Assembly: GCA_050250875.1 (NCBI GenBank)
Contig: JBFWNV010000002.1
Span: 334 to 64,333, forward strand
DNA from: Vicinamibacterales bacterium
GTDB taxonomy: Bacteria > Acidobacteriota > Vicinamibacteria > Vicinamibacterales > UBA2999
DNA: 64,000 nucleotides
Direction: 5' to 3'
The notes under the pieces were generated by a model, which was not told where the DNA came from, made no database searches, and saw nothing but the letters and a program-made list of their open reading frames with translations. Shown here one piece after another: positions 10,721 through 61,020 of the stretch; within the stretch, counting starts at the first letter, position 1, and every line of letters begins with the position of its first letter. The position numbers and the translations under genes are program-made.

Positions 10721-10722
10721 CG

Positions 10723-15530: not shown

Positions 15531-15567
15531 GGCCCCGGCGTCACCGCCGAGCTGGTACGATCCCGCC

Positions 15568-17520: not shown

Positions 17521-17552
17521 CCCGAGCCCCGAGACCCGAGCCCCGAGTCCCG
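17521..17552 (-). repeat. Heptad array R2 (CCCGAG CCCCGAG ACCCGAG CCCCGAG TCCCG on plus strand; G-rich on minus strand)
   Basis: The array starts immediately after the yjbQ-like stop codon (17553-17555) and ends 22 nt before the mqn gene start. Confidence 0.9.
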
Positions 17553-18149: not shown

Positions 18150-18372
18150 CGGCGGCCGGGTGCTACACTGCGCAGACAATCGACGCGTTCCCGTGGCTGG
18201 CCAGGGAAGTGGGTGCGAGTCCCACACGGTCCCGCCACTGTAAGCGGGGAGCGCCCGTCCACCGGCTGGACTGCGATCCAGCCCGTCACTGCCGATCGGC
18301 GCCGTGCGGCGCCGGCGGGGGGAAGACGAGGACGCGGCGTGACGATCCGCGAGTCAGGAGACCTCCTCCACG
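18150..18372 (+). promoter_or_regulatory. Cobalamin (B12) riboswitch
   Basis: The core reads CCAGGGAAGUGGGUGCGAGUCCCACACGGUCCCGCCACUGUAAGCGGGGA and includes the B12 box. The 3' element is GAGUCAGGAGACCUCCUCC. CCUCCUC (18362-18368) is complementary to the SD sequence GAGGAGG (18423-18429) of the downstream receptor gene. Confidence 0.85.
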
Positions 18373-33440: not shown

Positions 33441-33472
33441 TCCCTGGTCCCCGGTCCCTGGTCCCCGGTCCC
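33441..33472 (-). repeat. Heptad array R3 (TCCCTGG TCCCCGG x2 on plus strand; GGGACC[A/G]-type, G-rich on minus strand)
   Basis: The array fills the sufB-sufC spacer, starting directly after the sufB stop codon (33473-33475) and ending 6 nt before the sufC ATG. Confidence 0.9.
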
Positions 33473-34921
<1,449 letters not shown>

Positions 34922-34931: not shown

Positions 34932-34979
34932 CCCTGTTCCCCAGCCCCGTTCTTGACCGAGTCCCCAGCCCCCAGCCCC
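34932..34979 (-). repeat. G-tract array R4 in the iscA-sufB spacer (GGGGCTG-type; 7 G-tracts on minus strand)
   Basis: The minus strand reads (TAG)GGGCTGGGGGCTGGGGACTCGGTCAAGAACGGGGCTGGGGAACAGGGC, directly after the iscA-like stop codon. Confidence 0.85.
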
Positions 34980-35308
34980 TAGACCCCGAACGAAGTTCCG
35001 CACCCGCACGCGCTCTTCGCGTTGGGGTTGCGCAGCGTGAAGGTCGTGGCCATGAGGTTGCCCTCGTCGAAGTCGAGCACCGTGCCGTCGAGCAGCTTCA
35101 GGCTGCGCGGGTCGACGAACACCTTGACGCCCTCCGGCCCGTCGAACACCTGATCGGTCGGCCTGGCCTCGCGCTCCCACTGGAAAACGTAGCTGTAGCC
35201 CGAGCAGCCGCCGGCCTTGATGGCCACGCGCAGTCCACCCCGGGCCGCGCCGCTCTTCACGAGCTGCCGGTTGATGACCCGCGCCGCGCTCTCCGTGATC
35301 TCAATCAT
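34979..35308 (-). CDS. A-type Fe-S carrier (IscA/SufA/ErpA, HesB family)
   Basis: Motifs GGCSGYSY and C-terminal CGCGTSFGV. ATGA overlap with the upstream gene. Confidence 0.85.
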   Translation of the reverse strand: MIEITESAARVINRQLVKSGAARGGLRVAIKAGGCSGYSYVFQWEREARPTDQVFDGPEGVKVFVDPRSLKLLDGTVLDFDEGNLMATTFTLRNPNAKSACGCGTSFGV

Positions 35309-35742
35309 CCCGCCACCCCGCGTCCCGCCCGAGCCCCGAGCCCCGAGTCCCGAGCCCCGGCCTTGCGTTCCCAGTCCCCGATCGCCTGCTGCACCGCCGC
35401 CACGGCCTGCACCGCCATCGCCCGCTTCTCGTCCGGCAGCTCCAGCCCGTTGGCGATGGCCGCAGCGTCGAGGCCACGGGCCGCGTCCACGGCCAGGCCG
35501 GCCACCTGCTCGGCCGCCAGGCTGGCGCTGGCGATCGCCGCGCTGCAGCCGAACACCTTGAAGCGGGCGTCGTCGACGACGACACCGGTCACGCGCACCT
35601 GCATGCGCACCACGGTGCCGGCGTCGAGGCTGCCCACGACGCCGGTGCCGACCTGCGGGTCGTGCTCCGCCCAGCCGCCGGCACGGGTCATCTCGCGGCA
35701 GCGGCGGATCACCTCGGCCGAGTAGCCGGTGGCGACGCTCAT
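35305..35742 (-). CDS. NifU/IscU N-domain-like protein (degenerate: only one of three canonical cluster Cys retained)
   Basis: FKVFGCSAAIASAS matches the central IscU motif. The positions of the first (GAPACGD) and third (HCS) Cys motifs read GSLDAGT and RAMAV. Coupled by ATGA overlaps on both sides. Confidence 0.65.
   Translation of the reverse strand: MSVATGYSAEVIRRCREMTRAGGWAEHDPQVGTGVVGSLDAGTVVRMQVRVTGVVVDDARFKVFGCSAAIASASLAAEQVAGLAVDAARGLDAAAIANGLELPDEKRAMAVQAVAAVQQAIGDWERKAGARDSGLGARAGRGVAG
35327..35360 (-). repeat. Heptad array R5 (GCCCGAG CCCCGAG CCCCGAG TCCCGAG CCCCGG on plus strand), lying inside the 3' coding end of the NifU-like gene
   Basis: The array is translated as ..[12 protein letters not shown].. 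in the 35305..35742 ORF. Confidence 0.9.
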
Positions 35743-36927: not shown

Positions 36928-37407
36928 TCAGTCGGCGAGACGCGGCGCCTGGCGCAATGACGGCTGAACGGTGAGCGGCACCGGCACCGCTTCGGCGGCG
37001 GCCGGCGGTTCCGCCAGCTCGGCCAGGCTCACCGTGGCCAGCGCGTCGACGATGCGCGACTTGATCTTCCAGAGCGGATCGCGAATCTCACAGCGCTCGA
37101 ACTGTTCGCAGGTGTGATTCGACGGCGAGCACGCGGTGACCGCGACCGGGCCGTCGATCGCCTGGATCACGTCGGCCACCGTCATCTGGTGCGCCGGCCG
37201 CCCCAGTTTGTAGCCACCGCGGGTGCCCTGCACCGATACCAGGAGCTTCGATCGCACCAGCCGCTGCAGCACCTTGGCGAGCAACTCGGCCGGGATGGCG
37301 TAGCTTTCGGCGATCTCGCGGGCGCTCGACGAGCTGCCCGGCTCGCTGCCCGCGAGGTGGCGCATCGCGATCAGGGCGTAATCCGCTTTCTTCGACAGGC
37401 GCAGCAT
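36928..37407 (-). CDS. iscR: Rrf2-family transcriptional regulator (IscR/SufR-like, Cys-containing)
   Basis: The N-terminus is MLRLSKKADYALIAMRHLA. The wHTH motif is GTRGGYKL. A Cys cluster CSPSNHTCEQFERC is present. First gene of the Fe-S operon. Confidence 0.85.
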   Translation of the reverse strand: MLRLSKKADYALIAMRHLAGSEPGSSSSAREIAESYAIPAELLAKVLQRLVRSKLLVSVQGTRGGYKLGRPAHQMTVADVIQAIDGPVAVTACSPSNHTCEQFERCEIRDPLWKIKSRIVDALATVSLAELAEPPAAAEAVPVPLTVQPSLRQAPRLAD

Positions 37408-37499
37408 GGGTGGTCGTCCTGACGCTGGGACGCCGGGGATTGGGGCCCCCGGCGACGCCGTCCAGCGGGATCGCCAGAAATGGCGACCTCACGAGTCCT

Positions 37500-37528
37500 A
37501 TATTAGCCAGCGAAGTCCGACTGCGCAA
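37500..37528 (-). promoter_or_regulatory. Candidate promoter of the iscR-suf operon (-35 TTGCGC, 17-nt spacer, -10 TAATAT)
   Basis: The minus strand reads TTGCGC-N17-TAATAT. It is followed by ATAGGACTCGTGAGGTC, a possible Rrf2 operator, about 90 nt upstream of the ATG. Confidence 0.35.
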
Positions 37529-37551
37529 GTCGGGGATTGGGTGGACGGTTC

Positions 37552-37569
37552 AGGGACCGGGGACCAGGG
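37552..37569 (+). repeat. Heptad array R6 (AGGGACC GGGGACC AGGG, G-rich on plus strand)
   Basis: Left arm of composite element A, complementary to R7. Confidence 0.8.
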
Positions 37570-37664
37570 AAAGCGCTTGGCACGGCGCGTTCCGCGCCGT
37601 AGGCGCCTCAAAGCCCGCACGAGCAGGAACCCAGGCCGCGGCGACGCGGCCGACAGGCGTTCTG

Positions 37665-37693
37665 CCCGGTCCCGGGTCCCTGGTCCCTGGGTC
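37665..37693 (-). repeat. Heptad array R7 (CCCGGT CCCGGGT CCCTGGT CCCTGGGTC on plus strand; G-rich on minus strand)
   Basis: On the minus strand the array begins 10 nt after the cysO::moeZ stop codon (37704-37706). Confidence 0.85.
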
Positions 37694-37703
37694 GCTGCGA
37701 GCG

Positions 37704-39152
37704 TCAGTACTTCGGCTGGCTCGGGTCTACCTGGTCAATCCAGGCCAGGATGCCGCCGGTGAGGTTCCGCACGTTGGTGAAGCCCTGCTGGCGCAGGAAC
37801 GCCGCCGCCTTGCCGGAGCGGACGCCCGACTTGCACTGGGCGACGATCTCGGCGCTCTTGTCGAGCTCGGCACAGCGACTCGGCAAGTCGCCCAGCGGAA
37901 TCAGCACCGACCCCGGGATGCGGTTGATCTGGTACTCGTTCGGCTCGCGCACGTCGAGGATGAACGGCGTCGTCCCGGCGTCCATGCGCGCCTTCAGCTC
38001 CAGCGGCGAGACGTCGGTGGCCGGCGAGGTCGGCGGCGGCGTGGCCGGCGCCGGCGTGATGCCGCAGAACTGCTCGTAGTCGATGAGCGCCGTCACCGTC
38101 GGGTGCGTCCCGCACACCGGGCAGTCGGGATCCTTGCGCAGCGTCAGCTCGCGGAAGCGCATCCGCATCGCGTCGTAGATGAGGAACCGTCCGGCCAGCG
38201 TCTGGCCGATGCCGAGAATCAACTTCACCGTCTCGGTCGCCTGGATCGTGCCGACCAGGCCCGGCAGGATGCCGAGCACGCCGGCCTCGGCGCAGCTCGG
38301 CACGAGCCCGGGCGGCGGCGGCTCCGGGTACAGGCAGCGGTAGCACGGGCCGTCCTTGGTGCCGAACACCGAGGCCTGGCCTTCGAACCGGAAGATGCTG
38401 CCGTAGGCGTTCGGGATGCCGAGGAGCACGCACGCGTCGTTGACGAGATAGCGCGTCGGGAAGTTGTCGGTGCCGTCGACGATCACGTCATAGCCGCGGA
38501 AGATGTCGAGCGCGTTCTGCGAGCTGAGCGCCACCTCGTGGCCGACGACGTTGACGTGCGGGTTAATGCGCCGCAGCGTGTCCCGAGCCGACGCCAGCTT
38601 CGGCCGGCCGATGTCGTCGGTGCCGTGCATGATCTGACGCTGCAGGTTGCTGAGATCGACGGTGTCGAAGTCGACGATGCCCAGCGTGCCGACGCCCGCC
38701 GCCGCTAGGTACATCGCCACCGGCGAGCCGAGGCCGCCGGCGCCGATGCACAGCACCTTGGCGGCCTTGAGCTTCTGCTGCCCCTCCATGCCCACTTCCG
38801 ACAGGATGAGGTGGCGGCTGTAGCGCTTGATCTCCTCGCCGTCGAGGGCCGGGAGCGCGGCCGGGGCCTCGACACCGGCGCCACCGGCCACCGACGGGAT
38901 GATGCTCACCGTCTGGCCATCGGCCACCGGCGTCTGCTCCTTCTGCAGGTAGCGGATGTCCTCGTCGCCGACGTAGATGTTCACGAAGCTCCGCAGCTTG
39001 CCGTCGGGCGTGAAGAGGTGCTGCTTGAGGCCGGCGTGCTTCGTCGTCAGGTCCTGGAGCACCTCGCCGACCGTGGCGCCATTGGCCTGCACGGTGTCGA
39101 GCTTGTCGGTGAAGGGCCGAAGGGGCGTCGGGATGTGGATGGCTACGGGCAT
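37704..39152 (-). CDS. moeZ: Fusion protein: CysO/ThiS/MoaD-type sulfur carrier (ending ..SVAGG) + MoeZ/MoeB-type adenylyltransferase + rhodanese domain
   Basis: The first 91 aa (MPVAIHIPTPLRPF..FVNIYVGDEDIRY..SIIPSVAGG) resemble CysO. A 14-aa linker follows. The E1-like domain has RYSRHLIL, GAGGLGS and CxxC pairs. The rhodanese domain has CKSGVRS. Confidence 0.85.
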   Translation of the reverse strand: MPVAIHIPTPLRPFTDKLDTVQANGATVGEVLQDLTTKHAGLKQHLFTPDGKLRSFVNIYVGDEDIRYLQKEQTPVADGQTVSIIPSVAGGAGVEAPAALPALDGEEIKRYSRHLILSEVGMEGQQKLKAAKVLCIGAGGLGSPVAMYLAAAGVGTLGIVDFDTVDLSNLQRQIMHGTDDIGRPKLASARDTLRRINPHVNVVGHEVALSSQNALDIFRGYDVIVDGTDNFPTRYLVNDACVLLGIPNAYGSIFRFEGQASVFGTKDGPCYRCLYPEPPPPGLVPSCAEAGVLGILPGLVGTIQATETVKLILGIGQTLAGRFLIYDAMRMRFRELTLRKDPDCPVCGTHPTVTALIDYEQFCGITPAPATPPPTSPATDVSPLELKARMDAGTTPFILDVREPNEYQINRIPGSVLIPLGDLPSRCAELDKSAEIVAQCKSGVRSGKAAAFLRQQGFTNVRNLTGGILAWIDQVDPSQPKY

Positions 39153-39176
39153 ACGTCCTCGTTGGAAACCTCAAGT

Positions 39177-39608
39177 CTACGACGCCGCGGCCGCCTCCGC
39201 CGTGTCGACCGCCTGTTCGTCGTAGCCCGACCGGTCGGCCTTCAGCCGCCACGCGCGCAGTGCCCCCGGCTGGCCCTGCTGCACCGACAGGATCGGGTAG
39301 ACGAAGGTCGGGAAGGCGTGATCGAGATCGTACTGCGACGGCTCGGCCGGGTGATCGGGGTGGGAGTGGTAGAAGCCGAGCAGACTCAGCCCCGCCGCCG
39401 ACGCCTTGCGCTCGGCCGCCAGGTAGTCCTTGTCGTCCACCCGGAAGCGGCGGCGCGGCCCCTCGGTGGTCACGTTGGGCAGCGGGTGCACGGCGTGCAC
39501 GACGTCGCCCTCACCCAGCAGCGCGCCGCAGCATTCGTGCGGATAGGCCTCGCGGCCGTGCTGCTCGATGGCGGCGCGGACGCCAGGCCTGAGCGTGAGC
39601 GGCATCAT
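39177..39608 (-). CDS. mec: JAMM/MPN+ metalloprotease (Mec-type)
   Basis: Contains E..ECCG and the JAMM motif HSHPDHPAEPSQYD. ATGA overlap with cysM. Confidence 0.85.
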   Translation of the reverse strand: MMPLTLRPGVRAAIEQHGREAYPHECCGALLGEGDVVHAVHPLPNVTTEGPRRRFRVDDKDYLAAERKASAAGLSLLGFYHSHPDHPAEPSQYDLDHAFPTFVYPILSVQQGQPGALRAWRLKADRSGYDEQAVDTAEAAAAS

Positions 39609-40567
39609 GTCGTCGGCGTCTCCGACAGCGGCGCCGCGTCCACGGCGGGCTTCCGTCCCTCGTCCCAGAAGTGCTCGGACAGGTAGCGATCGCCGGCATC
39701 GCACAGCACGACCACCATCACGACGCGGTCCCGGCTGCGCAGTGCGTCGGCCGCCCGGGCCAGCCCGGCGGCGACGTTGGCGCCGCTCGAAACGCCGACG
39801 AGCAACCCCTCTTCGCGGGCCAGCCGGCGGGTCATCTCGTGCGCGGCCTCGGTCGAGATCTCCGCAGCGTAGTCGGCCAGCGTCTCGTCGTAGATGCCGG
39901 GGACGATCGCCGAGGCCATGTGCTTGAGCCCTTCGAGCCCGTGCAGCGGCGACTCCGGCTGCACCGAGACCAGCACGACGTCGGGGATGTGGGCGCGCAG
40001 GAAGCGGCCCGTGCCCATGAACGTGCCGCTGGTGCCGAGCGCGGCGATGAAATGGGTGAGGCGGCCGGCCGTGCCGGAGAGGATCTCCGGCCCGGTGGTC
40101 TCGTAGTGCGCCCGCCAGTTGAAGTCGTTGTTGTACTGATCCGGATAGAAATACCGCTCCGGGGCCGCGGCATACCGGCGCCGGCACTCGACGATCGCGC
40201 CGTCCGATCCGTCCATCGGATCGGTGAACACGAGGTCGGCACCATAGGCGGTGAGGATGCGCTTCCGCTCCGGACTCGCGCTCGCCGGCACGCACAGCGT
40301 CACCGGGAAGCCCAGGGCGGCGCCGATCATCGCGTAGGCGATGCCGGTGTTGCCGGAGGTGGCGTCGAGCAGCCGCTTGCCGGGGCCGAGCGCTCCCGAG
40401 CGGATGCCCTCGAGAATCATGTGGCGGGCGGCGCGGTCCTTCACCGACCCGCCCGGGTTGCTCGCCTCGAGCTTGCCGTACAACTCGAGGCCCGGCACGT
40501 CGCGTTCGAGCCGCGACAGGCGGACCAGTGGCGTATTGCCGATGGCGTCCAGCAGCGTTCTGTCCAT
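39605..40567 (-). CDS. cysM: Cysteine synthase (CysM-like, PLP-dependent)
   Basis: Motifs NPGGSVKDR, SGNTG and GTSGTFMG. ATG 40567; the ORF track uses TTG 40573. Confidence 0.9.
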   Translation of the reverse strand: MDRTLLDAIGNTPLVRLSRLERDVPGLELYGKLEASNPGGSVKDRAARHMILEGIRSGALGPGKRLLDATSGNTGIAYAMIGAALGFPVTLCVPASASPERKRILTAYGADLVFTDPMDGSDGAIVECRRRYAAAPERYFYPDQYNNDFNWRAHYETTGPEILSGTAGRLTHFIAALGTSGTFMGTGRFLRAHIPDVVLVSVQPESPLHGLEGLKHMASAIVPGIYDETLADYAAEISTEAAHEMTRRLAREEGLLVGVSSGANVAAGLARAADALRSRDRVVMVVVLCDAGDRYLSEHFWDEGRKPAVDAAPLSETPTT

Positions 40568-40690
40568 GGACAAGTTTCCAGCTTATGGCACAACGCGGGC
40601 CGTGGCACGACGCACCTGTGACGAACCGCCGGGTCGAGCGACATATTCGCTGGATCGAATGCGCCGCCGGCATCGTGGCATGATCCCGGC

Positions 40691-41302
40691 GTGCCTCTCG
40701 ACACCTGGCGCGCGCGCCGGCATCTAATGGCGGCCGACCCGTTGCTGGCCGACCTGATCCGGCGGGCCGGTCCGTGCCGGCTGGGCACCTCCCGACACGA
40801 GGACCCGTTCTTTCTCCTGCTGCGGGCGATCGTGTCGCAGCAGCTCTCGACCAAGGCAGCGGCGACGATCTTCGGACGCCTGTGTGCGCTGTTCCCCGCC
40901 GATCGCCCGTCGCCGTCGCGGCTGCTGGCCCTCGACGACGCCACCCCCCGCGGCGTCGGTCTCAGCACCAACAAGACGCGGTTCGTCCGCGACCTCGCCG
41001 CGCGCGTCCGCGATCGGCGCCTCGACCTCAACGCCCTCGAGCACCAGGACGACGCCACCGCCCTGAATGCGCTGACCGCGGTGCTCGGCATCGGTACGTG
41101 GACCGCCGAGATCTTCCTGATGTTCCAGCTGCATCGGCCCGATATCTTTCCGGCCGCCGACCTCGGTCTGCTGACGGCGATGCAGCGCGTCTACGGGCTG
41201 CGCACGCGGCCGACCGCGAAGCGGGCCCTGCGGCTGGCCGAACCCTGGCGCCCGCACCGGTCGGTGGCCGCGTGGTACCTGTGGCGGAGCCTGGAGATCT
41301 AG
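40691..41302 (+). CDS. DNA-3-methyladenine glycosylase II family (HhH-GPD, AlkA-like)
   Basis: Contains SQQLSTKAA, GIGTWTAEIFLMF and an Asp-containing loop FPAADLGL. Confidence 0.8.
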   Translation: MPLDTWRARRHLMAADPLLADLIRRAGPCRLGTSRHEDPFFLLLRAIVSQQLSTKAAATIFGRLCALFPADRPSPSRLLALDDATPRGVGLSTNKTRFVRDLAARVRDRRLDLNALEHQDDATALNALTAVLGIGTWTAEIFLMFQLHRPDIFPAADLGLLTAMQRVYGLRTRPTAKRALRLAEPWRPHRSVAAWYLWRSLEI

Positions 41303-41305
41303 TGC

Positions 41306-41337
41306 AGGGACCAGGGATCAGGGACCGGGGACCAGGG
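41306..41337 (+). repeat. Heptad array R8 (AGGGACC AGGGATC AGGGACC GGGGACC AGGG; G-rich on plus strand)
   Basis: The array starts 3 nt after the AlkA-like stop codon (41300-41302). Confidence 0.9.
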
Positions 41338-41448
41338 AAAGGCGTCGGCGCTGATCGCGCCGACCTCAAGTTGTTCAGACCTACAGGGGCTCCCGACACG
41401 GAGGAATCGCCCACCAGCCGTAGGCGTAAGTTCCGTCGGAGGAAGTTT

Positions 41449-41500
41449 CCTGATCCCTGATCCCTGGTCCCTGGTCCCTGGTCCCTGGTCCCTGGTCCCT
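41449..41500 (-). repeat. Heptad array R9 (2 x TGATCCC + 5 x TGGTCCC on plus strand; G-rich on minus strand)
   Basis: The array abuts the SIMPL gene stop codon (41500-41502) and is complementary to R8. Confidence 0.9.
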
Positions 41501-42206
41501 TACTTGATCGTCACCGTCAGCGTCACCGTGGCCCGAATCACCGCCTCGCCGGCGGCGATCGGCGGCGGCGGCGCAGCGGCGATGCTGTCGGCCGCCATCC
41601 GCATCATCGGCTGTTCGATCGGCCGGCTGACGACGCCGTCCTCTTCGATGCGTACGACGGCGACGACCGTGGCGCCGGCCCCGTCAGCGGCCGCCGCCGC
41701 GCGGGCGCGCGCATCGGCGACCGCCCGGGTGATCGCCTGGCGCTCGAGCTGCGTGCGATCCTTCACGTCGAACCGCACGCCCTGCACGGCGGTGCCGCCG
41801 GCGGTGACGGCGATCTCGAGCAGTTCGCCGACCCGCCCCACCTGGTCGGCCCGCACCTCGATCACGTTGCGGGCCAGAAATCCCCTCGGCACCTGCTTGC
41901 CGTTGACGTAGTCGAACTGCGGCTGCAGGTCGTAGCTGAGCGTGCGGATGGCGTCCTTGGCCAGCCCGGCGCCGGTCAGGCGCTGCTGGACGGCGGTCAT
42001 CGCCGTCGCACCCTGCGTCTGGGCATCCTTGGCGGTGCTGCCGCGGTGCTCGGTGGCCAGCGTGATGAAGGCGACGTCGGGCTGGGCACGCACCTCGCCC
42101 TCGCCGCGCACGACGACGACCGGCGGTGGCGGTCCGGCCGGGGGCTGCGCCGCCACCGGGGTGATGCCCACGCCGATCGCGAACAGCGAGCACAGGGCAC
42201 GTCGGG

Positions 42207-42210
<4 letters not shown>
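41500..42210 (-). CDS. SIMPL-domain (DUF541) periplasmic protein
   Basis: The signal peptide MTRRALCSLFAIGVGITPVAA is followed by a SIMPL-like pattern (VRGEGEV.A.PD.A, Y.V). ATGA overlap with the upstream gene. Confidence 0.7.
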
Positions 42211-43052
<842 letters not shown>

Positions 43053-43233
43053 TCAGGCCGTGGTGACTGTGGCGCCGGCACTCGACCGGCGATGCATCCC
43101 GCCTCGCATCGTTGCTCCTCCCTCGAATATTTCTCGATATCCTCGGTCGTCGCGTCTTGCGATCCGGGCGCCTCTCCGCCCTCGGTGCTGCGCCACCACA
43201 GCCACCAAGGCCTGATCAGTATACTCGGCGCCT

Positions 43234-44376
43234 ATGCGGGTCGAGCCCTTCGCGATGGAGCGCTTTCAGTCGGTCTGGGAGCACCGGGTACGCATCAACC
43301 TGTCGGAGAGCGGCGTCCATCCCCTCAGCGTGCGCGAGCTGGTCGGCGACGGCGCGGCCCTCGACGCGCTGCTCGATCAGCCGCTCGTCTACACCCAGAC
43401 CAACGGCACCGAGGCGCTCCGCTCGGCCATCGCCGCGCTCTATCCCGGCGCTGGCGTGGACCACGTCGAGGTGACCAACGGCGGAGCCGAGGCCAACTTC
43501 CTCGTCACCTGGTACCTCGTGCAGCCGGGCGACGAGGTGGTGATGCTCGTGCCCACCTACATGCAGACGCACGGGCTGGTCCGCGCCTTCGGCGGCGTCG
43601 TCCGCGAGTGGCCGCTGGTCGAGGACCGCGACGAGCGGCGGTGGCGGCTCGATCTGGACCATCTGGCCGCCCTGGTCGGCCCGCGCACGCGGGCGATCGT
43701 GCTGTGCACGCCCAACAACCCGACCGGCCGGCGGCTCACCGGCGACGAACTCGATGCCATCGCCGCGATCGCCGATCGCCACGGCTGCTGGATCGTGAGC
43801 GACGAGATCTACCGCGGCGCCGAACGCGACGGCGTCGAGTCGCCGTCGATGTGGGGGCGCGGTGAACGCGTCGTCGTCACGAGCGGTCTGTCCAAGGCCT
43901 ACGGCCTGCCCGGCCTGCGCATCGGCTGGGTGGCAACCGCGCCGGACGTGGCCGAGACCCTGTGGAGCTATCACGACTACACCACGATCGCGCCGGGCGC
44001 CCTGAGCGATCGCCTGGCGCGGACGGCGCTGGCGCCACCGACCCGGGCCCGACTGCTGGCGCGCACGCGCCAGGTGATCACCGACAACCTGCCGCGGGTC
44101 GAAGCCTGGCTCGATGCGCACGGCGATCGCTTCGCCTGGATCCCGCCCGAGGCCGGCGCCTTCGTCTACGCCCGCTACGCCGGCGCCATCAACTCGACCG
44201 CGCTGGTCACGCGCCTGCGCGACGAGGAGAGCGTCCTGGTCGTCCCCGGCGATCAGTTCGGCATGGACGGCTACCTGCGGATCGGCGTCGGTGAACACGT
44301 CGCATCGGTGATGGCCGGTCTGGAGCGGCTGCGCGCGGTGCTCGACTGCTGGCCACAGCCCGCGGCTGCACGCTGA
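43234..44376 (+). CDS. PLP-dependent aminotransferase, class I/II
   Basis: Motifs NPTGRRL, SDEIY and SGLSKAYGLPGLRIGW (PLP lysine). Confidence 0.85.
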   Translation: MRVEPFAMERFQSVWEHRVRINLSESGVHPLSVRELVGDGAALDALLDQPLVYTQTNGTEALRSAIAALYPGAGVDHVEVTNGGAEANFLVTWYLVQPGDEVVMLVPTYMQTHGLVRAFGGVVREWPLVEDRDERRWRLDLDHLAALVGPRTRAIVLCTPNNPTGRRLTGDELDAIAAIADRHGCWIVSDEIYRGAERDGVESPSMWGRGERVVVTSGLSKAYGLPGLRIGWVATAPDVAETLWSYHDYTTIAPGALSDRLARTALAPPTRARLLARTRQVITDNLPRVEAWLDAHGDRFAWIPPEAGAFVYARYAGAINSTALVTRLRDEESVLVVPGDQFGMDGYLRIGVGEHVASVMAGLERLRAVLDCWPQPAAAR

Positions 44377-45419
44377 TGCCGGCGCGGCCGTCGCTGCGGC
44401 TCGTGCTCGTCGGCACCGGCCATGTCGGGCGCCGGCTGCTGACGCTGCTCGCCCAGATCGGCGACCGGCTGCCGTTCGACTGGTCGCTGGTCGGGGTGTG
44501 CTCCCGATCGCGCGGCGGCCGGTTCGACGCCGACGGGATCGATCCGGGCCAGCTCGATGGGCCGCTCGATCCGCCGGAGCGCTGGAACGGCGACGGCAGC
44601 GGCTTTCTCTCGGCCGCCCTGCCGCGGCTGGCCGCCGAGTGCCGCGCCGGCCGCGTGGTGGTCGTCGAAACCACCGTGCTGGACGCCGCCCGCGGGGAAC
44701 CGGCGACGAGCCACGTGCGAACGGCGCTGGGCGCCGGCGCCCACGTCGTCACCGCCAACAAGGGACCGGCGGCATTCGCGTATCACGACCTGGCGGCCCG
44801 CGCCGCCGCCGCCGATCGCGCGTTCCTCTTCGAGAGCGCGGTCATGGACGGCGTGCCGGTGTTCTCGCTGGTCGCCGACGCGATGCCGGCGATGCGTGTC
44901 ACGGCGTTCCGCGGCGTCGTCAACACGACCTGCGGCTACGTCCTGGCCGCGCTCGAGCGCGGCGAACGCTTCGCCGACGCGCTCGCCGAGATGCAGCGCC
45001 AGGGCATCGCCGAGGCCGATCCGTCACTGGACGTCGACGGCTGGGATGCCGCGGCGAAGGCGGCCGTGCTGGCCAATGCGCTGCTCGACGCCCGGATCAC
45101 GCCCCACGACGTCGTCCGTCAGGGCATCCGCGGCCTCGACGTCGAGGCCCTGGCCCGGCACAGGACCCAGGGGGTGCGGCTGCGCCTGGTGGCCGAGGGA
45201 CGGCGCACGGCGGACGCCGTGACGTGCCGCGTGGCGCCGGCGTGGCTCGAGGCGGCGGATCCCCTGGCCCAGGTGTCGGGGCTCGAGAACGCGCTCTATC
45301 TGTCCACCGACCTTCTCGGCGAGATCGGCATCGTGCAGCGCGACGGCGGCCTCACCCAGACGGCGTACGGCCTGGTCGCCGATCTGGCGCGGGTCAGCCG
45401 TCGGGTGACCGCCCGGTGA
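44376..45419 (+). CDS. Homoserine dehydrogenase family oxidoreductase
   Basis: The N-terminal Rossmann motif is VLVGTGHVGRRL. Also ANKGP, ESAVMDGVPV and AEADPSLDVDGWDAA. Confidence 0.7.
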   Translation: MPARPSLRLVLVGTGHVGRRLLTLLAQIGDRLPFDWSLVGVCSRSRGGRFDADGIDPGQLDGPLDPPERWNGDGSGFLSAALPRLAAECRAGRVVVVETTVLDAARGEPATSHVRTALGAGAHVVTANKGPAAFAYHDLAARAAAADRAFLFESAVMDGVPVFSLVADAMPAMRVTAFRGVVNTTCGYVLAALERGERFADALAEMQRQGIAEADPSLDVDGWDAAAKAAVLANALLDARITPHDVVRQGIRGLDVEALARHRTQGVRLRLVAEGRRTADAVTCRVAPAWLEAADPLAQVSGLENALYLSTDLLGEIGIVQRDGGLTQTAYGLVADLARVSRRVTAR

Positions 45420-45642
45420 GCGCGGCCAGCGCCGCCGCGTCGAAGCCGACGACGGCGCGGTCGCCCGCGACGGTCACCGGCACGGTGCGATGACCCCGCG
45501 CCACGAGCTCGTCGTAGGCGGCGAGGTCCTCGTCGACGTTGCGCAGCACGAACGCCACCCCGGCCCGTGAAAGCCACGCCTTCACCCGTTCGCAGGGCTG
45601 TCAGCCTTCGCCGGCGAAGACGATGACGGGCGCCTCGGTCAT
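45394..45642 (-). CDS. Glutaredoxin/NrdH-fold protein with in-frame TGA in the redox motif (candidate selenoprotein, U-Q-P-C), 82 codons
   Basis: ORF fragments 45601..45834 (C-terminal MTEAPVIVFAGEG) and 45394..45585 are in the same frame. The joined read is VIVFAGEG-TGA-QPCERVKAWL...RTVPVTV..VVGFD. A hairpin lies at 45567-45585, 15 nt after the TGA. Confidence 0.5.
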
Positions 45643-45703
45643 GCATCCGACATTACCAGAGCGCCGGCCGGCGCGACGCGGGGTACCATGTGCGGGACAC
45701 GAC

Positions 45704-46897
45704 ATGGGACCACTGACCGGCATCACCGTTCTCGACTTCACGCGCGTGCTCTCCGGGCCGTACTGCACGATGATCCTCGGCGACCTCGGCGCGCGCGTCA
45801 TCAAGCTCGAACATCCCGGCCGCGGTGACGACACCCGGCGCTGGGGCCCGCCGTTTCTCGGTGACGAGAGCGCCTACTTCCTGAGCGTCAACCGCAACAA
45901 GGAGAGCGTGGCGGTCGACTTCAAGACGCCGGGCGGCCGCGCCCTCGTGGATCGGTTGCTGGCCCAGGCCGACGTGCTGGTCGAGAACTTCCGTCCCGGC
46001 ACGCTCGACGGCGCCGGGTTCGATGCGGCCACTGTGCGGGCGGCGCATCCGCGGTTGATCTACTGCTCCATCTCCGGCTACGGCCAGACCGGGCCCCGCC
46101 GCGACGAACCCGGCTACGACGCGGTGATGCAGGCCGAGGGCGGGCTGATGAGCATCACCGGAGCGGCCGACGGGCCGCCGTATCGCCTCGGCGTCGCCAT
46201 CGTGGACATCGTCTCGGGCATGTTCGCCGCGCAGGGCGTGCTCGCGGCGCTCGTCGCCCGCGAGCGCACCGGGCAGGGCCAGGTGGTCGATCTCGGCATG
46301 CTCGACGCCACCACCGCGCTGCTCACCTATCAGGCCGGCAACTTCTTCGCGACCGGCGCGGCGCCGGGCCGGCTCGGCAACCGTCATCCGACCATCGCGC
46401 CCTACGAGACCTTCGCCACCGCCGACGGCGACCTGGCCCTGGCCGTCGGCAACGACGCGCTGTGGCAGAAGTTCTGCGCGGCCGCGGAGCTGCCCGACCT
46501 GGCCGCCGATCCGCGATTCGCGTCGAACGCCGGACGGCTCGAGCACTACCCGGCGCTCAAGCCGCGGCTCGACGCGGCGTTCGCCTCACGGACGCGCGCC
46601 GACTGGACGGCGCGGCTGCTGGCCGCGGGCGTGCCGTGCGGGGCGGTGCGGACGGTGGAGGAGGTCTTCGCCGATCCGCAGACGGCGGCGCGCGAGATGG
46701 TGCGGAAGGTGCCGCACGCGACGCTGGGCGAGGTCTCGGTCACCGGCGTGCCGGTCAAGCTGTCGGACACCCCCGGCAGCGTGCGCCTCGGTCCGCCGGT
46801 GCTGGGGCAACATACCGCGGCGGTGCTGCGCGAGCTCGGCTACGATCAGGCGGCCATCGCATCACTGGCGTCGTCGGGCGCCGTCCGGGTGGCGTGA
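45704..46897 (+). CDS. CoA transferase, family III (CaiB/BaiF)
   Basis: Motifs ITVLDFTRVLSGPYCTMILGDLGARVIKLE, ENFRPG and GYD..MQA.GG. Confidence 0.85.
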   Translation: MGPLTGITVLDFTRVLSGPYCTMILGDLGARVIKLEHPGRGDDTRRWGPPFLGDESAYFLSVNRNKESVAVDFKTPGGRALVDRLLAQADVLVENFRPGTLDGAGFDAATVRAAHPRLIYCSISGYGQTGPRRDEPGYDAVMQAEGGLMSITGAADGPPYRLGVAIVDIVSGMFAAQGVLAALVARERTGQGQVVDLGMLDATTALLTYQAGNFFATGAAPGRLGNRHPTIAPYETFATADGDLALAVGNDALWQKFCAAAELPDLAADPRFASNAGRLEHYPALKPRLDAAFASRTRADWTARLLAAGVPCGAVRTVEEVFADPQTAAREMVRKVPHATLGEVSVTGVPVKLSDTPGSVRLGPPVLGQHTAAVLRELGYDQAAIASLASSGAVRVA

Positions 46898-46898
46898 G

Positions 46899-47327
46899 AT
46901 GGACATCGCCCTGCTCCGCAAGTCGCTGGTCAAGGCCATCGAGAGCGCCCGGCGCGACGCCGCCGAGCGGCGCACGCGCGCCGACGAGGCCGGCCGCCAC
47001 TACACGCAGTTCCTCGAGCAGACGGCGACGCCGGTGTTCCGGGCGATGGCCAACGCCCTGCGCGGCGAGGGTCTGCTCTTCGACGTGATGACGCCGTCGG
47101 GCGGCGTCCGCCTGGTGCCCGAGCGGTCGCGGGAGGACGGCATCGAGCTGGTGCTCGACACCAGCGTGGATCCGCCGCAGCCGCTGGTGCGCGTGGTGCG
47201 CTCGCGCGGCAGCCGGGTGACGCAGCACGAGCGGCCGGTGGCCGGCCCGGTCCGCACCGACGCGCTCACCGAGGATCACGTGGCGGCGATGCTGCTCGAA
47301 GAGCTGCGGCCGTGGTTGGAGAGATAG
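46899..47327 (+). CDS. Hypothetical protein
   Basis: 142-aa ORF starting 1 nt after the upstream stop codon. No family was recognised. Confidence 0.5.
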   Translation: MDIALLRKSLVKAIESARRDAAERRTRADEAGRHYTQFLEQTATPVFRAMANALRGEGLLFDVMTPSGGVRLVPERSREDGIELVLDTSVDPPQPLVRVVRSRGSRVTQHERPVAGPVRTDALTEDHVAAMLLEELRPWLER

Positions 47328-47390
47328 GCTCGGGGCTCGGGGCTCGGGGCTCGGGGCTCGGGGCTCGGGGCTCGGGGCTCGGGGCTCGGG
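47327..47390 (+). repeat. Heptad array R10 (about 9 x GGGGCTC, G-rich on plus strand)
   Basis: A perfect tandem array beginning at the last base of the stop codon 47325-47327. Confidence 0.95.
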
Positions 47391-47457
47391 AAGAACCTAA
47401 ACGGAACCATCACCCATTCTTCCGGCAGCGTGACGTCTCGACAACTTGAGTGTTCGA

Positions 47458-47484
47458 ACCCGAGCCCCGAAACCCGAGCCCCGG
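47458..47484 (-). repeat. Heptad array R11 (ACCCGAG CCCCGAA ACCCGAG CCCCGG on plus strand; G-rich on minus strand)
   Basis: On the minus strand the array begins 19 nt after the PilT-like stop codon (47504-47506). It is complementary to R10. Confidence 0.85.
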
Positions 47485-47486
47485 CT

Positions 47487-47525
47487 GTTCGTCGAGCGGC
47501 GAGCTACGCGAGCCGCTCGACGAAC
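47487..47525 (-). terminator. Perfect 14-bp hairpin with the PilT-like gene's stop codon in its loop
   Basis: GTTCGTCGAGCGGC (47487-47500) pairs with GCCGCTCGACGAAC (47512-47525). The 11-nt loop contains the stop codon. Confidence 0.5.
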
Positions 47526-50167
47526 GACGTGTCGATGCCCTCGCGGCGCAGCAGGCCGAGCAGGCCCACCTTGTCGTCGGCCTTGCGGTAGGCCTCGCGG
47601 ACGTCGACCGCGCCGCTCTGCACGAACGCCACCAGGGCGTCGTTGAGCGGCGCCATGCCCAGCTTGCGGCCGCTGTCGATGGCGCGCGGCAGCTGGGCGA
47701 TCTGGCCGTCGCTGACCAGCGCGGCCACGGCGTTGGTGTTGAGCACCAGCTCCCGGGCGGCGAGCCGGCCGCCGCCGGCCTTGCGCAGCAGCACCTGGGC
47801 GACGACGCCGCGCAGGTGTTCGGCGAGGGCGGCCCGCACCGTGCGCCGCTGTTCCGACGGGCACAGATCGACGAGGCGCTCGAGCGCGGCGGTGGCCGAC
47901 GCCGCGGTCACCGACGCGAACACCAGCAGGCCCGAGCCGGCGGCGTCGAGCGCCACCTGCAGCACGTCGGGCGAGCGCAGGTCTTCGATGATCAGGACGT
48001 CGGGGTTCTCGCGCAGCGCGGCGCGGGCGGCGGTGACCACCTCGGCGGCGCTGCCGCGCAGCTCGCGCTGGCTGATGAGCGAGCCGCGGCTCTCGTGCAC
48101 CAGGCGAATCTGCCCTTCGAGCGTGATGACGTAGTCGTTGCGCTGGCGGTTGATGAGGTCGACGAAGGCCGAGACCATCGTCGACTTGCCGCTGGCGCGC
48201 GGGCCGGTGACGATCACCAGGCCTTCCGGTTCCATCGCCAGCGCCTGGATCTCGCGCACCAGGCCGAGCTGCTCGGCCGAGGTCGCGCGCGCCGAGATCA
48301 TCCGCAGCAGCGCGCCGGGGCCGCGGTAGTCGCGGAAGGTGGTGATGCGGACGCGGCCGATGTCCTGCAGATCGCGGATCCACTCGGCGCTTTCCTTGTC
48401 GCGGGCACCTTCCGGCGCCAGCTCCAGCACCGCCGCTTCGACATCGCCGCTCGACAGCGGCGACTCCCCTTCGAGCAGGCGGATGTCGCCGTCGACGCGC
48501 ACGGCCGGCCGCGCCTGCGTCGTGAGGTAGAGCGCCGAAGCGCCGCGCGCCGCGGCCAACCGCAGCAGGCGCTCGATGCCGCCGGCGCGGCCGTGCGCGC
48601 GCGAGGCCTGGCTGGCGGCGCGGGCCGAATCGCGGGTCAGCGAGAGGACCACGCCGGGGACGGCATCCGCCGGCGTCTCGCTGCGCGTGACGTCGTCGAA
48701 CGCCGTCGGCGGCAGGCCGGGCAGGGTCGGCTGCGGCTCGATCGGTGGGAACGGGGGCTCGGGCACGGCGGGTTCGACGCGCGGCATCGGCGCGCGGGGG
48801 GAGGCCGCGGCGGCCGGCACGTCGTAGCGGGGAGCGTAGGGTTCGACCGGCGGCGCCGCTGGCGCGATCGGCGGCTCGGGGGAGACCGGCACGGGCGTCA
48901 TTGTCGCCGAGGCGGGCGCCGCCGTGGGCGGAATCGCGGCCGCGGCCGCCGGGGCCGTGAACTCGGGCACGGCCGGCACCGGCTGGGCCGGCTCGGGCGG
49001 CGCGGCCGCCACGACGGGCACGGGCGGCGCCGCGGCCACCGGTTCGAACTCGGGTTCGGCCGCGCCGGCGGGTTCGGCCTCGACCGCTGGCGTGGCTGCG
49101 GGTTCGGCCGCTGGCCCCGGAGATGCGGCCGCGGCGGACTCGACCGCGGCGGCGGGCGGTTCGGCGAACGGCATCGACACGGGTTCGACCGGCGGGACGG
49201 CGGCCTCCACGACCGCGTCGAACGACACCGGCGCCGCCGCGGCCGGCAGGTCGATGGTGAACTCGAGCGCCGGCGCCACGGCCGGCTCGTCGATCGGCGA
49301 CTCGAAATCGATCGCCGGTACGTGGTCGATGGTCCACGTCTCGGGCGCGATCGACTCGGCGATCTCGACCGGTTCGAAGGTGTCCTCCGCCGTCGCCGGT
49401 GCGGGCTCGACCTCGGCGGCCGGCTCGGCCACGACCAGCGGTGGTTCGAACGGCACCGGCTCCGGCCCGGCAGGCATCGGCTCGACGGCGGGCGTGCGCT
49501 CCTCGAGGGCGGCGGGTTCAACCTGCGGCGCTGCGGACTCCACGGCTGCGGGCTCGATGACCGCAGCCTCGACCTCGACCGACACGGTTTCGTCCTCGAC
49601 GGCGGGTGGGGTCATGGGCGACGCGACCTCTGCCGGTTCGGCGGCGACCTCGGCGGGCAGGTCGTGGGATGGGATCGCCCCCGCCGGCTCGGCGGACGCC
49701 GCGACCTCGGGCGCCGCCGTCTCGGCTGGCGCAGCGAGCGGCTCGGGCGGCGCGGCGGCCGTCTCCGGCTCGTGATCGGCGGTCGCGATCGGCGCCTCGA
49801 CGGCGGCAGCCGGCGCCGCCACCGGCACCGACGGACGGGGGCGGCGGTGGCGGCGCACTTCGATCCAGATGTCGTCGCCGCCGCGCGCGGCGATGACGGT
49901 GAAGCGATCGCCGCCGGCCGCGGGAATCGTCGCCAGCTCGTGCTCGACGGCGCCCATCTCGCGCAGGCCGCGCAGCGCGTCGGCGGTCAGCAGCTGCGCG
50001 AGCAGGCCCTCCATCGCGCCGAGACCGAGCCCCTGACGCGACAGCTCGACCGGGCCGGCGGCCGCCACGACGTAAGGCTTCTCCCCTACGTGCAGCACCA
50101 GCGCATCGCCGTCACTGCGGACGATGGCGGTCAGGAGCGAGTCGACGAGCGGCATCGGTGATGACAT
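47504..50167 (-). CDS. PilT/GspE-family ATPase-like protein with duplicated PilT N-domain and a Pro/Ala/Glu/Val-rich linker of about 450 aa
   Basis: The C-terminal ATPase domain has Walker A GPRASGKST and DVLIIEDLR. The His-box position reads FASVTAASATAALERL, with no His. The N-terminal 110 aa and residues around 560-650 both look like PilT N-domains. Confidence 0.7.
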   Translation of the reverse strand: MSSPMPLVDSLLTAIVRSDGDALVLHVGEKPYVVAAAGPVELSRQGLGLGAMEGLLAQLLTADALRGLREMGAVEHELATIPAAGGDRFTVIAARGGDDIWIEVRRHRRPRPSVPVAAPAAAVEAPIATADHEPETAAAPPEPLAAPAETAAPEVAASAEPAGAIPSHDLPAEVAAEPAEVASPMTPPAVEDETVSVEVEAAVIEPAAVESAAPQVEPAALEERTPAVEPMPAGPEPVPFEPPLVVAEPAAEVEPAPATAEDTFEPVEIAESIAPETWTIDHVPAIDFESPIDEPAVAPALEFTIDLPAAAAPVSFDAVVEAAVPPVEPVSMPFAEPPAAAVESAAAASPGPAAEPAATPAVEAEPAGAAEPEFEPVAAAPPVPVVAAAPPEPAQPVPAVPEFTAPAAAAAIPPTAAPASATMTPVPVSPEPPIAPAAPPVEPYAPRYDVPAAAASPRAPMPRVEPAVPEPPFPPIEPQPTLPGLPPTAFDDVTRSETPADAVPGVVLSLTRDSARAASQASRAHGRAGGIERLLRLAAARGASALYLTTQARPAVRVDGDIRLLEGESPLSSGDVEAAVLELAPEGARDKESAEWIRDLQDIGRVRITTFRDYRGPGALLRMISARATSAEQLGLVREIQALAMEPEGLVIVTGPRASGKSTMVSAFVDLINRQRNDYVITLEGQIRLVHESRGSLISQRELRGSAAEVVTAARAALRENPDVLIIEDLRSPDVLQVALDAAGSGLLVFASVTAASATAALERLVDLCPSEQRRTVRAALAEHLRGVVAQVLLRKAGGGRLAARELVLNTNAVAALVSDGQIAQLPRAIDSGRKLGMAPLNDALVAFVQSGAVDVREAYRKADDKVGLLGLLRREGIDTSFVERLA

Positions 50168-60102: not shown

Positions 60103-61020
60103 TTACCGCTCGAACCGGATGGTGCCGTCGCCGGTGCGCACCCGCAACGTGCCGCCGCCGGCGCCCAGCGTCGCCCGCAGCTCGCGCCGCGACTCGTCGT
60201 CGCCGTCGTCGCGCCGCACCACTTCGAGGCCCGGGTAGTTCGATCGCACGCTGCCGTCCGAGGTCACGGCGTCGACCATCACGTCGATTTTCTCGGGCAG
60301 CCGCACCTCGACGCTGCCATCGCGCGTTTCCACGGTCCAGTCGTCGGTGGCCGTGCTGCCAGCCTCGACGGCGATCCGCACCGAGCCGTCGCCGGTCTTG
60401 GCGCGCAGGTGCGTGAAGGTGCCGTTGACGACGACACTGCCGTCGCCGGTTTCGACGTCGACCTTGCCGCTGATCTCACGGAAGCGGATGCTGCCGTCGT
60501 CGGTGCGCGCCGTCACCTCGCCGGTGATCCGCGAGGCGACGATGGCGCCGTCGTCGGTGCGCAGCGTCTGCACGCCGTCGACTTCCTCGACGGTGATCGA
60601 GCCGTCGCCGCTGCGCAGGTCGAGGGCGGTCGTCTTGGGTACGGCGACGCGCAGCCGCGCGCTCGGCGAGTAGCTGACGCCGATCACCACGCCTTCGCTC
60701 CCCGACCAGGTCGGGCCCTTCACGCGGAGGCGGATCTGGTCGCCCTCCTGCGACTTCTCGACGGTGATCTCCTGCAGCCGCGCGTCGTCCTGCGCCTGCT
60801 TCTCGACCACCACCTCCACTTCGGGCCGGTCCCAGGCGTGCACCTCGATGGCGCCGTCGAAGGTGTCGAGCGCGACCGTCGCGGTGCCGGTCACCGTGAA
60901 GCGATGCGTTTCCGACGCCGTGGCGCCGTCGGTGTTGACGTTGACCGTGCACGCAGTGAGCGCGACGGCGAGTGTGCCGGCGCCGACGGCGCCGATGAGA
61001 TCTCCTGGTCGTGCCATCAC
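60103..61020 (-). CDS. DUF4097-family beta-strand-repeat lipoprotein
   Basis: Lipobox ..LAVALTAC. Repeated units (T/S)(D/G)DGSI/V (SGDGSITV, TDDGSIRF, TGDGSVVV, TGDGSVRI, TRDGSVEV, TSDGSVRS, TGDGTIRF). ATG 61017 is an alternative start. Confidence 0.75.
   Translation of the reverse strand: MMARPGDLIGAVGAGTLAVALTACTVNVNTDGATASETHRFTVTGTATVALDTFDGAIEVHAWDRPEVEVVVEKQAQDDARLQEITVEKSQEGDQIRLRVKGPTWSGSEGVVIGVSYSPSARLRVAVPKTTALDLRSGDGSITVEEVDGVQTLRTDDGAIVASRITGEVTARTDDGSIRFREISGKVDVETGDGSVVVNGTFTHLRAKTGDGSVRIAVEAGSTATDDWTVETRDGSVEVRLPEKIDVMVDAVTSDGSVRSNYPGLEVVRRDDGDDESRRELRATLGAGGGTLRVRTGDGTIRFER

Follow-up and report, generated by a model that had tools for sequence, protein, structure and literature searches.

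Element B, the subject of this work, is a composite repeat located between two convergent genes in a 64,000-nucleotide stretch of DNA, here called the window, from a Vicinamibacterales bacterium (Acidobacteriota; GenBank assembly GCA_050250875.1, contig JBFWNV010000002.1, positions 334 to 64,333 of the forward strand). The element was identified as an inverted pair of hypervariable heptamer arrays, a known and widespread class of repeat (Rehm et al. 2015; PMC4692102), represented here in Acidobacteriota (Vicinamibacterales, soil) by the unit AGGGACC with AGGGATC variants. In the related genomes that were compared, the composite architecture persisted at orthologous sites, and the core, the repeat unit and the G-tracts did not. 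The reading that we favour from these comparisons of sequence, with a probability of roughly 0.45, is that element B is a fast-turnover repeat of the foldback type, and that the hairpin formed by its two arms probably provides both transcripts with a non-essential end structure.

Layout and folding of element B

The gene to the left of the spacer encodes an HhH-GPD protein (AlkA-like DNA glycosylase; 40691..41302, plus strand; Pfam PF00730, E = 2.3e-15) and ends with a TAG stop codon at 41300-41302. A gene call on the metagenome-assembled genome (MAG) contig JBFXCB010000110.1 gave a protein identical to this product. To the right, on the minus strand, lies a SIMPL (DUF541) gene (41500..42210; Pfam PF04402, E = 6.3e-45; 236 aa in the gene call on L001), whose TAA stop codon reads TTA on the plus strand at 41500-41502. 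Two arrays of period 7 were reported in the spacer by Tandem Repeats Finder, both as read on the plus strand. The left arm (41305..41338, CAGGGAC x4.9, 85% matches) starts 2 nt past the glycosylase stop codon, includes one GGGATC and one GGGGAC variant unit, and is G-rich on the plus strand, which is the sense strand of the glycosylase gene. The right arm (41449..41500, CCTGGTC x7.4, 97% matches) is composed of two TGATCCC units followed by five TGGTCCC units, abuts the SIMPL stop codon and is G-rich on the minus strand, which is the sense strand of the SIMPL gene. The left and right units are exact reverse complements of each other, and every unit in both arms contains GGG, with at least four GGG tracts per arm and loops of 4 nt.

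Between the arms lies a core of 110 nt (41339..41448), with a G+C content of 61.8% against 71.9% for the window. The core contains a perfect 8-bp hairpin, GTCGGCGC-TGATC-GCGCCGAC (41344..41364), which is followed by no U-tract on either strand, and three short blocks, CTCAAGTTGT at 41365, GGAGGAAT at 41400 and GTTCCGT at 41430. A first-pass annotation of this DNA had described the array-core-array layout, the hairpin and the blocks; the layout was confirmed by the sequence and by Tandem Repeats Finder, and the hairpin and blocks were found at the positions that it had given. The composite of arms and core occupies the entire convergent spacer. The arrays begin at the boundaries of the open reading frames (ORFs), each with its G-rich strand directed 5' to 3' towards the core. 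The arms are thus in opposed orientation and enclose all of the non-coding DNA.

The predicted fold of element B had an energy of -129.9 kcal/mol on the plus strand (z = -9.3) and of -126.8 kcal/mol on the minus strand (z = -9.2), and none of 200 shuffles folded as stably on either strand. About 33 consecutive pairs were formed between the arms on both strands, which bears out the expectation that the complementary arrays could pair into a very long stem (about 33 bp, z about -9). The further suggestion of a structured terminator was not supported by any canonical terminator motif. In a scan of 37300-47700, no stem-plus-U-tract terminator was found in or near element B or the two similar composites described below, and no match to element B was obtained in Rfam 15 at either gathering or permissive (E <= 10) thresholds, the best matches being noise. 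No canonical promoters were found in the spacers.

As had been noted, the same layout is present elsewhere in the window, in elements A and C. Element A (37551..37693) has GGGACC-type arms and lies 10 nt past the stop codon of a ThiF-like gene and 144 nt upstream of the start of an Rrf2 gene. Element C (47327..47483) has GGGGCTC-type arms of 9 and about 3.6 units and lies in a convergent spacer, with its left arm overlapping a stop codon. Three matches to an arm-gap-arm pattern were found in the window, in elements A and B, compared with none in 100 shuffles.

Turnover of the composites at orthologous loci

A Vicinamibacterales MAG matching the window (GCA_050182705.1) was found, and syntenic loci in seven relatives were reached through homologues of the glycosylase. 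Protein identity to the window was 98% for L117, 90% for L118, 86% for L120, 85% for L121, 82% for L127 and L128, 74% for L129 and 66% for L130. The spacers corresponding to elements A, B and C are referred to as loci A, B and C.

At locus B, element B itself was present in L117, with a right arm shorter by two units (5.4 units) and an altered arm-core junction. In L118 and L128, arms of the GGGGCTG/GGGGACT type enclosed a core unrelated to that of the window. In L120, (CGGCTAG)x7 was placed opposite (CTAGCCG)x4. In L121 the sole remaining array was a solo one adjoining the SIMPL stop codon, and the locus was without arrays in L129 and L130, with a spacer of only 45 nt in L130. G-tracts numbering at least four were present at locus B in the window, L117, L118 and L128, were replaced in L120 and were absent in L129 and L130. 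As the CGGCTAG units of the L120 ortholog lack a G-triplet, the potential to form a G-quadruplex (G4) was not conserved.

Several further observations were made at this locus. In two relatives, the array overlaps the glycosylase ORF at its 3' end, encoding a C-terminal tail in L118 (2027-2064; 215 versus 203 aa) and providing the stop codon in L120 (10583-10600). In L121, a gene for an M14 peptidase of 983 aa (10586-13537, equivalent to L122 7065-10016) is located between the glycosylase and SIMPL genes, starting 9 nt past the glycosylase stop codon. Where the spacer was without heptamer arrays, REP-like palindromes with a GTAG start (GTAGGGCAGAGCTTCAGCTCTGCC) were observed (L127 10583-10790; L129 8873-8957). 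The same kind of palindrome also occurs within the long core of composite A in L117 (about 6880-6930).

The other two loci gave a similar series. At locus A, the window carries GGGACC units, L117 and L120 carry CGGCTAG, and L127 and L129 carry GGGGCTR/GGGACTR. The alignment of the window with L117, which was 98% identical across 16 kb, was interrupted exactly at composite A. At locus C, the GGGGCTC arms of the window were replaced by CGGCTAG arms in L117 and by a solo array in L121. The locus-C spacers of L118 (25 nt) and L120 (7 nt) each consisted of about one unit of the type used by the same genome. The existence of relatives with spacers of 7 or 25 nt indicates that the element is dispensable. 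In L130, the relative furthest from the window, the locus-C spacer (15300-16094) measured 795 nt and contained recurring segments of about 200 nt and no heptamer arrays.

A solo site in the suf cluster carried CCCGAGC, CCCTGGT, CTAGCCG, CCCTGTT or no array, depending on the genome, and the units of solo arrays at orthologous sites differed even between genomes that are 98% identical. One array, at 33441, was identical in the window and in L120 (87% identical). The units were linked by single-base steps, and mixed arrays were present. Comparison of filled with empty sites revealed no direct repeat that could represent a target-site duplication. Pairing between the arms was retained whatever the unit: 14/14 composites from the three loci, taken from 7 genomes, formed 24-47 such pairs. 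Judged on these alignments, the arrays are hypervariable, with copy numbers that differ between 98% identical genomes, and whole composites have been gained, lost or replaced at sites where the flanking genes stayed in place.

Rules followed by the wider class

Species-representative genomes were scanned for two GGGACC units followed by a gap of 65-125 nt and two GRKCCC units, and at least 115 stretches with this arm-gap-arm pattern were found. The matches listed were mostly from Xanthomonas, Lysobacter, Pseudoxanthomonas, Stenotrophomonas, Rhodanobacteraceae and Wenzhouxiangella, and from Vicinamibacterales, Thermoanaerobaculia, Geobacteraceae and Planctomycetales. Only 4 matches to the pattern were found in 2.9 million viral contigs. 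From the matches listed, 109 elements were extracted, their loci having been fetched by the arm pattern; unbiased statistics were taken from the flanks of these pattern-fetched loci and from loci fetched by protein homology. Neighbouring genes were called with a simple caller that uses the G+C content of third codon positions.

The number of G-tracts per arm had a mode of four (52/109 and 51/109 in the two arms), and arms with three tracts were scarce (14/109 and 5/109). Among neighbouring pairs of arrays in these loci and the window that lay outside the fetching pattern, the order G-then-C outnumbered C-then-G by 21:1 (p = 1e-5). The two arms shared the same unit type even in genomes with several types, for example in the GGGATTC or GGGACTC pairs of genomes that had been fetched for GGGACC pairs, and the units of the arms agreed in 6/6 pairs of the window and L117, each of which holds more than one unit type. 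Unit repertoires were shared across many loci within a single genome. The G arm started at a median of 7 nt past the stop codon. In co-directional contexts, the distance from the end of the C arm to the next possible start codon had a median of about 16 nt, which is a lower bound. For the 51 composites with both neighbours called, 40 contexts were co-directional, 6 convergent and 5 divergent, with no enrichment of convergent genes. Within the sequences surveyed, the polarity, unit concordance and size of heptamer inverted pairs follow strict rules.

Additional arrangements were seen among the fetched loci. A second heptamer array was nested in the core of some composites (GGGTATC x7 in L081, about 2850-2920; GGGGACC x3 in L007). 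Other heptamer units also occur in Acidobacteriota (L012 5923-6015, 5528-5570 and 5029-5053), including a 13-unit GGCAGGC/GACAGGC array and CTCCTGA x6. Many units contain a short palindrome (GGWCC in GGGACC, CCCGGG in GGGACCC, GCTAGC in CGGCTAG, CYCGRG in GGGGCTC; window and L002-L130), and an array of CGGCTAG differs from its own reverse complement at 1/7 positions. As a speculation, some units resemble Chi motifs: CTAGCGG includes AGCGG, the Chi sequence of Bacillus subtilis, and GCTGGGGG is similar to GCTGGTGG, that of Escherichia coli.

Conservation and copy number of the cores

The layout of element B had been compared to that of a MITE, and further copies of the core were sought. No second copy was found in the window by short-word BLAST or in 1.1 Mb of related loci. 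A pattern made of the three core blocks gave only 4 chance matches in the metagenome collection, in an organism with 30% G+C. Among the relatives, the core was retained only in L117, the genome that is 98% identical to the window, and it could not be aligned in relatives with flanks that were about 90% identical. As the core was unique and unconserved, both the MITE-core and the structured-RNA readings of it fail by the standard that the first-pass annotation had itself proposed, namely copies elsewhere and conservation in relatives. The core of element B is whatever sequence lies between the arms.

Blocks of this core had also been said to recur in element C. Both CTCAAGTTGT and GTTCCGT do recur there, in colinear order on the opposite strand, at a level barely beyond chance: a chain of colinear exact blocks as long as that between B and C was obtained in 146/5000 dinucleotide shuffles (p ~0.03). 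The local alignment of the two cores had a z of 4.4, as one of 240 comparisons. With homology this weak, the grouping of the B and C cores into one family was dropped. An all-against-all comparison of the 109 cores showed that they were mostly unrelated, with few related pairs, and that most cores within one genome were unrelated to each other.

A different situation was found in the sister lineages L118, L127, L128 and L129, in which composites at loci A, B and C carry a homologous module of about 60 nt in their cores, oriented either way (L118 2064-2126; L127 6859-6919 and 17591-17647; L128 10658-10721 and 16454-16516; L129 5163-5225). The module consists of GTCACGC, a hairpin (GCATCGCC-loop-GGCGATGC) and then ACTAGCCCTGC, and was recognised by nhmmer at E = 1e-8 to 4e-17; the sequence of the stem is conserved and that of the loop is variable. 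Its members are about 65% identical to each other, whether compared within one genome or at one locus, which gives no indication of a recent burst. The nhmmer profile of the module had no match in the window, L117, L120 or L121.

The core of element A shares a module of 40 nt with a composite in the MetRS/TatD spacer of another Vicinamibacterales genome, a non-orthologous locus (z = 10). This 3' part of the element A core, CAGGCCGCGGCGACGCGGCCGACAGGCGTTCTGCC, is at 37625-37662 in the window and at 6714-6757 in L031. The GACARGNGTTCTRCC tail of the module was observed in a third genome as well (L060 6131-6145).

Possible origin and role of the hairpin

In the account that we favour, replication slippage would build and remodel each arm independently, and the pair would probably have been born by inverted duplication, or inserted as a foldback unit. 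The arrays may then expand up to the coding sequence. Less securely, in a transcript from either gene the G-rich arm would be made first and the C-rich arm might zip on to it, giving a stem of at least 30 bp placed directly past the stop codon, with the core looped out. The most likely outcome, and with it the weakest step, would be a non-essential bidirectional structure at the transcript ends that insulates both convergent genes, either as a hairpin roadblock that also keeps out 3'-exonucleases or as a site of double-stranded RNA processing. Such a role would be analogous to that of REP/BIME, ERIC and Correia elements. Neither a particular core sequence nor G4 formation is required in this account.

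A number of results weigh against it. Tests of whether selection for base pairing maintains the stem were uniformly negative. In the 49 elements of known direction, G.U pairs on the sense strand (26) did not exceed A.C mismatches (42). Variant units in one arm were not mirrored in the other (identity of 0.926, vs 0.928 with shuffled unit order), the lengths of the two arms were uncorrelated (r = 0.09), and the complementarity of the stem reached hardly into the core. The missing stem-plus-U-tract structure in composites A, B and C counts against a necessary terminator, and convergent spacers of 7 and 25 nt are tolerated by relatives. Solo arrays follow the same rules of size and position without a partner, which implies that whatever favours the arrays needs no hairpin. 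The four-unit mode is unlike the prediction of simple slippage and hints at a constraint of some kind. Finally, the cores of the sister lineages form a homologous dispersed family, and the notion that the core is just a spacer is therefore not universally true.

The main rival explanation is that the pairs are a by-product without function, in which polymerase slippage favours units of 7 nt, the arrays are tolerated only in non-coding DNA, pairs arise through occasional inverted duplication, and the hairpin is incidental. We regard this as unlikely on balance, though as a serious contender. The lack of compensation between the arms, of a G.U bias on the sense strand and of a correlation between arm lengths would all be expected from it, as would the dispensability of the composite in relatives, the single-base steps that connect the units, and the mixed arrays. 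The idea of slippage is that of Mrazek et al., as quoted in other papers. A mere by-product sits poorly, however, with the sharp four-unit mode and the depletion of three units, with the 21:1 polarity, with the persistence of arrays at orthologous sites across several changes of unit, and with unit repertoires common to many loci of one genome.

The first-pass annotation had also proposed that each arm can form a G4 on the sense strand of its own gene, and each arm might in that case be a regulatory G4 in DNA or RNA. The tracts and loops of both arms are suitable for this, the four-tract mode corresponds to the minimum for an intramolecular G4, and related oligonucleotides form G4 in vitro (Rehm et al. 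2015). For the GGGGCTC arrays, the RNA energy model predicted a very stable G4 (-65 vs -44 kcal/mol). For the GGGACC units of element B, however, the gain was just 0.4 kcal/mol (-10.0 vs -9.6 kcal/mol), compared with -130 kcal/mol for the full hairpin, so that the proposed G4 is marginal and is outcompeted. In addition, CGGCTAG units are used by the locus-B ortholog of L120 and by composites A and C of L117 and L120 with size, position and polarity unchanged, and a shared unit type in the two arms would not be needed by independent G4s. A G4 element was judged improbable.

An equally improbable explanation is a non-autonomous mobile element (MITE, REPIN or foldback) in which the arms and core move together, mobilised in trans, with a target just past ORFs. 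It would account for the presence/absence and replacement polymorphism at fixed sites, for the homologous core of about 60 nt at three loci in L118, L127, L128 and L129, for the 40-nt module of element A in the non-orthologous MetRS/TatD spacer, and for near-empty sites that retain about one unit of the type of their own genome. Against it are the core of element B, with no second copy anywhere searched, and the mostly unrelated cores of single genomes. The observation in the first-pass annotation that neither a transposase nor a target-site duplication is visible held for the relatives and for the 1.1 Mb of loci: no transposase or autonomous partner was found between concordant arms 0.3-4 kb apart, where only ordinary genes were present. 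The identity of about 65% among family members, with no recent burst, and the near absence of the pattern from viral contigs also count against mobility.

Neither the hairpin nor the by-product account fully explains the preference for four units, the 21:1 polarity and the unit repertoires particular to each genome, and this leaves room for a binding factor or for an active writing process. In the latter case, an active, polar and templated process would lay down or replace the arrays in whole blocks, each of about four units; examples would be the addition of repeats to 3' ends where the spacer is broken, or an unrecognised mobile system of the foldback type. We consider this very unlikely; it would nevertheless explain why, on either side, the G strand points its 3' end at the middle of the spacer (21:1), why the arms have the same unit and yet independent lengths, why there is a four-unit peak and a unit repertoire belonging to each genome, and why whole arrays differ at unchanged flanks between 98% identical genomes. 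Just as doubtful is a binding platform, in which a trans-acting protein would recognise the heptads singly, whether in single-stranded nucleic acid (RNA or DNA) or in duplex DNA. The candidates would be a cold-shock-type protein, a Chi-recognising helicase-nuclease, or an enzyme for the embedded palindromes (GGWCC, CCCGGG, GCTAGC). Genome-specific repertoires at many loci would fit such a protein, the constant size, about four units, points to a footprint, and the strict polarity puts both G-strand 3' ends toward the core; cold-shock-type binding has been proposed by MacGregor for TAACTGA heptamers. Several unit types per genome, and switches of type between 98% identical genomes, are difficult to reconcile with it. 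A structured non-coding RNA or riboswitch-like core with the arms as closing stem, despite the strong fold and the internal hairpin, is close to refuted by the lack of any Rfam match even at E <= 10, by a core that is unconserved beyond 98% identical genomes, and by homologous cores that relatives carry in both orientations at a single locus.

Comparison with known repeats

The closest described repeats are those of Xanthomonas. G-rich arrays of GGGAATC-type heptamers were reported in two genomes (186 and 183 arrays) as single arrays or, in 70-75 cases per genome, as "inverted repeat pairs" (Rehm et al. 2015). In that study, the type (single or pair) was conserved despite variation in length, the arrays were absent from plasmids and no function was identified; GGGGA(C/T)T repeats with few pairs were described in Nostoc. 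Element B and its relatives resemble the Xanthomonas pairs in having intergenic tandem 7-nt units with G-tracts, a G strand located by the end of an ORF and often touching the stop codon, a four-unit mode, convergent pairs that can form stem-loops, and copy number and sequence that vary between related genomes. They differ in the unit, which is GGGACC(A/G) or GGGGCTC here instead of the GGGAATC/GGGNATC of Xanthomonas and Nostoc, and in the Acidobacteriota host, a phylum new to the described class. The orthologous CGGCTAG units, without a G-triplet, would have escaped the definition used by Rehm et al.

Nearly the same unit, with the same preferred number of four, was described in Geobacter metallireducens, in which Gmet_H4 comprises 49 elements of four tandem GGGACCG (Aklujkar et al. 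2009; PMC2700814). These are single arrays, some of them intragenic, and were proposed to be regulatory RNA elements. Pairing was not described for Gmet_H4, in contrast to element B; Geobacteraceae are among the matches to the paired pattern found here. Tandem heptamers were later reported as the most abundant intergenic tandem repeat in many prokaryotes, with "no clear clue" to function (Mori et al. 2018; PMC6344855). No later literature that settles the function of heptamer arrays was found.

The cyanobacterial STRR (short tandemly repeated repetitive) sequences are another group of heptamer repeats. TAACTGA repeats were described in Beggiatoaceae and cyanobacteria, mostly upstream of start codons, and it was for these that binding of a cold-shock-type protein was proposed (MacGregor 2015; PMC4679880). 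Both groups are like element B in being intergenic tandem heptamers with a patchy distribution among taxa and a genome-specific unit, but their units are AT-richer and pairs are rare.

Other known elements are similar in architecture or in location. REP/BIME and REPIN sequences are present in hundreds of intergenic copies, with inverted doublets that form hairpins, often past stop codons or between cistrons. REP sequences can protect mRNA 3' ends and attenuate transcription, and have no target-site duplication and no internal gene. Each of their arms is a unique palindrome of 20-40 nt that has a GTAG-type end and is recognised by RAYT (REP-associated tyrosine transposase), whereas the arms of element B are tandem heptamers. 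The ERIC/IRU units of enterobacteria and the Correia elements of Neisseria are hairpin-forming MITEs, palindromes of 100-200 bp located between genes and transcribed together with their neighbours; Correia elements are substrates of RNase III and have a TA target duplication. ERIC and Correia elements are also intergenic hairpin-forming units with presence/absence polymorphism. They have a conserved full-length consensus, however; what the composites described here have in common is limited to the arms and, in some lineages, part of the core.

Drosophila foldback (FB) transposons are kilobase-scale elements mobilised by a known transposase-bearing partner. They are similar to element B in having inverted arms of short tandem repeats, unequal arm lengths and a variable centre, and no evolutionary link is implied by this comparison. 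Like a bidirectional intrinsic terminator, element B places a G+C-rich stem-loop between convergent genes right past both stop codons; unlike one, it has no flanking U- or A-tract, a stem of at least 30 bp and a loop of 110 nt, and is dispensable in relatives. Of the features of a MITE, presence/absence polymorphism was found at loci B and C; homologous copies of the element B core, target-site duplication and a transposase partner (in the 1.1 Mb searched) were not. Homologous core copies of the MITE type were found only as the other core family, in L118 and L127-L129.

Other arrays and features of the window

Five solo arrays of 4-5 units each were found in the window, all of them in short spacers between co-directional minus-strand genes and all G-rich on the sense strand of these genes, which is the minus strand. 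Two of these arrays are at 13493-13529 and 17521-17552. The other three are in the suf (Fe-S cluster assembly) cluster, at 33441..33473, 34957-34986 and 35328-35359. The window also contains a cobalamin riboswitch (18203-18364, plus strand; 62 bits), a tRNA-Ser(CGA) gene (155-245, minus strand), a tRNA-Arg(ACG) gene (7992-8068, plus strand) and a tandem repeat with 2.3 copies of a 54-nt unit (60437-60562).

Significance for heptamer arrays

Element B does not add a new kind of element to those already described, and the useful part of the analysis is the orthologous series around it. In this series, arrays are kept at their sites through changes of unit, including changes to units without G-triplets. 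Together with the strict polarity and with a four-unit mode that lacks base-pair compensation, the series argues against the G-quadruplex reading that is dominant in the literature on these repeats.

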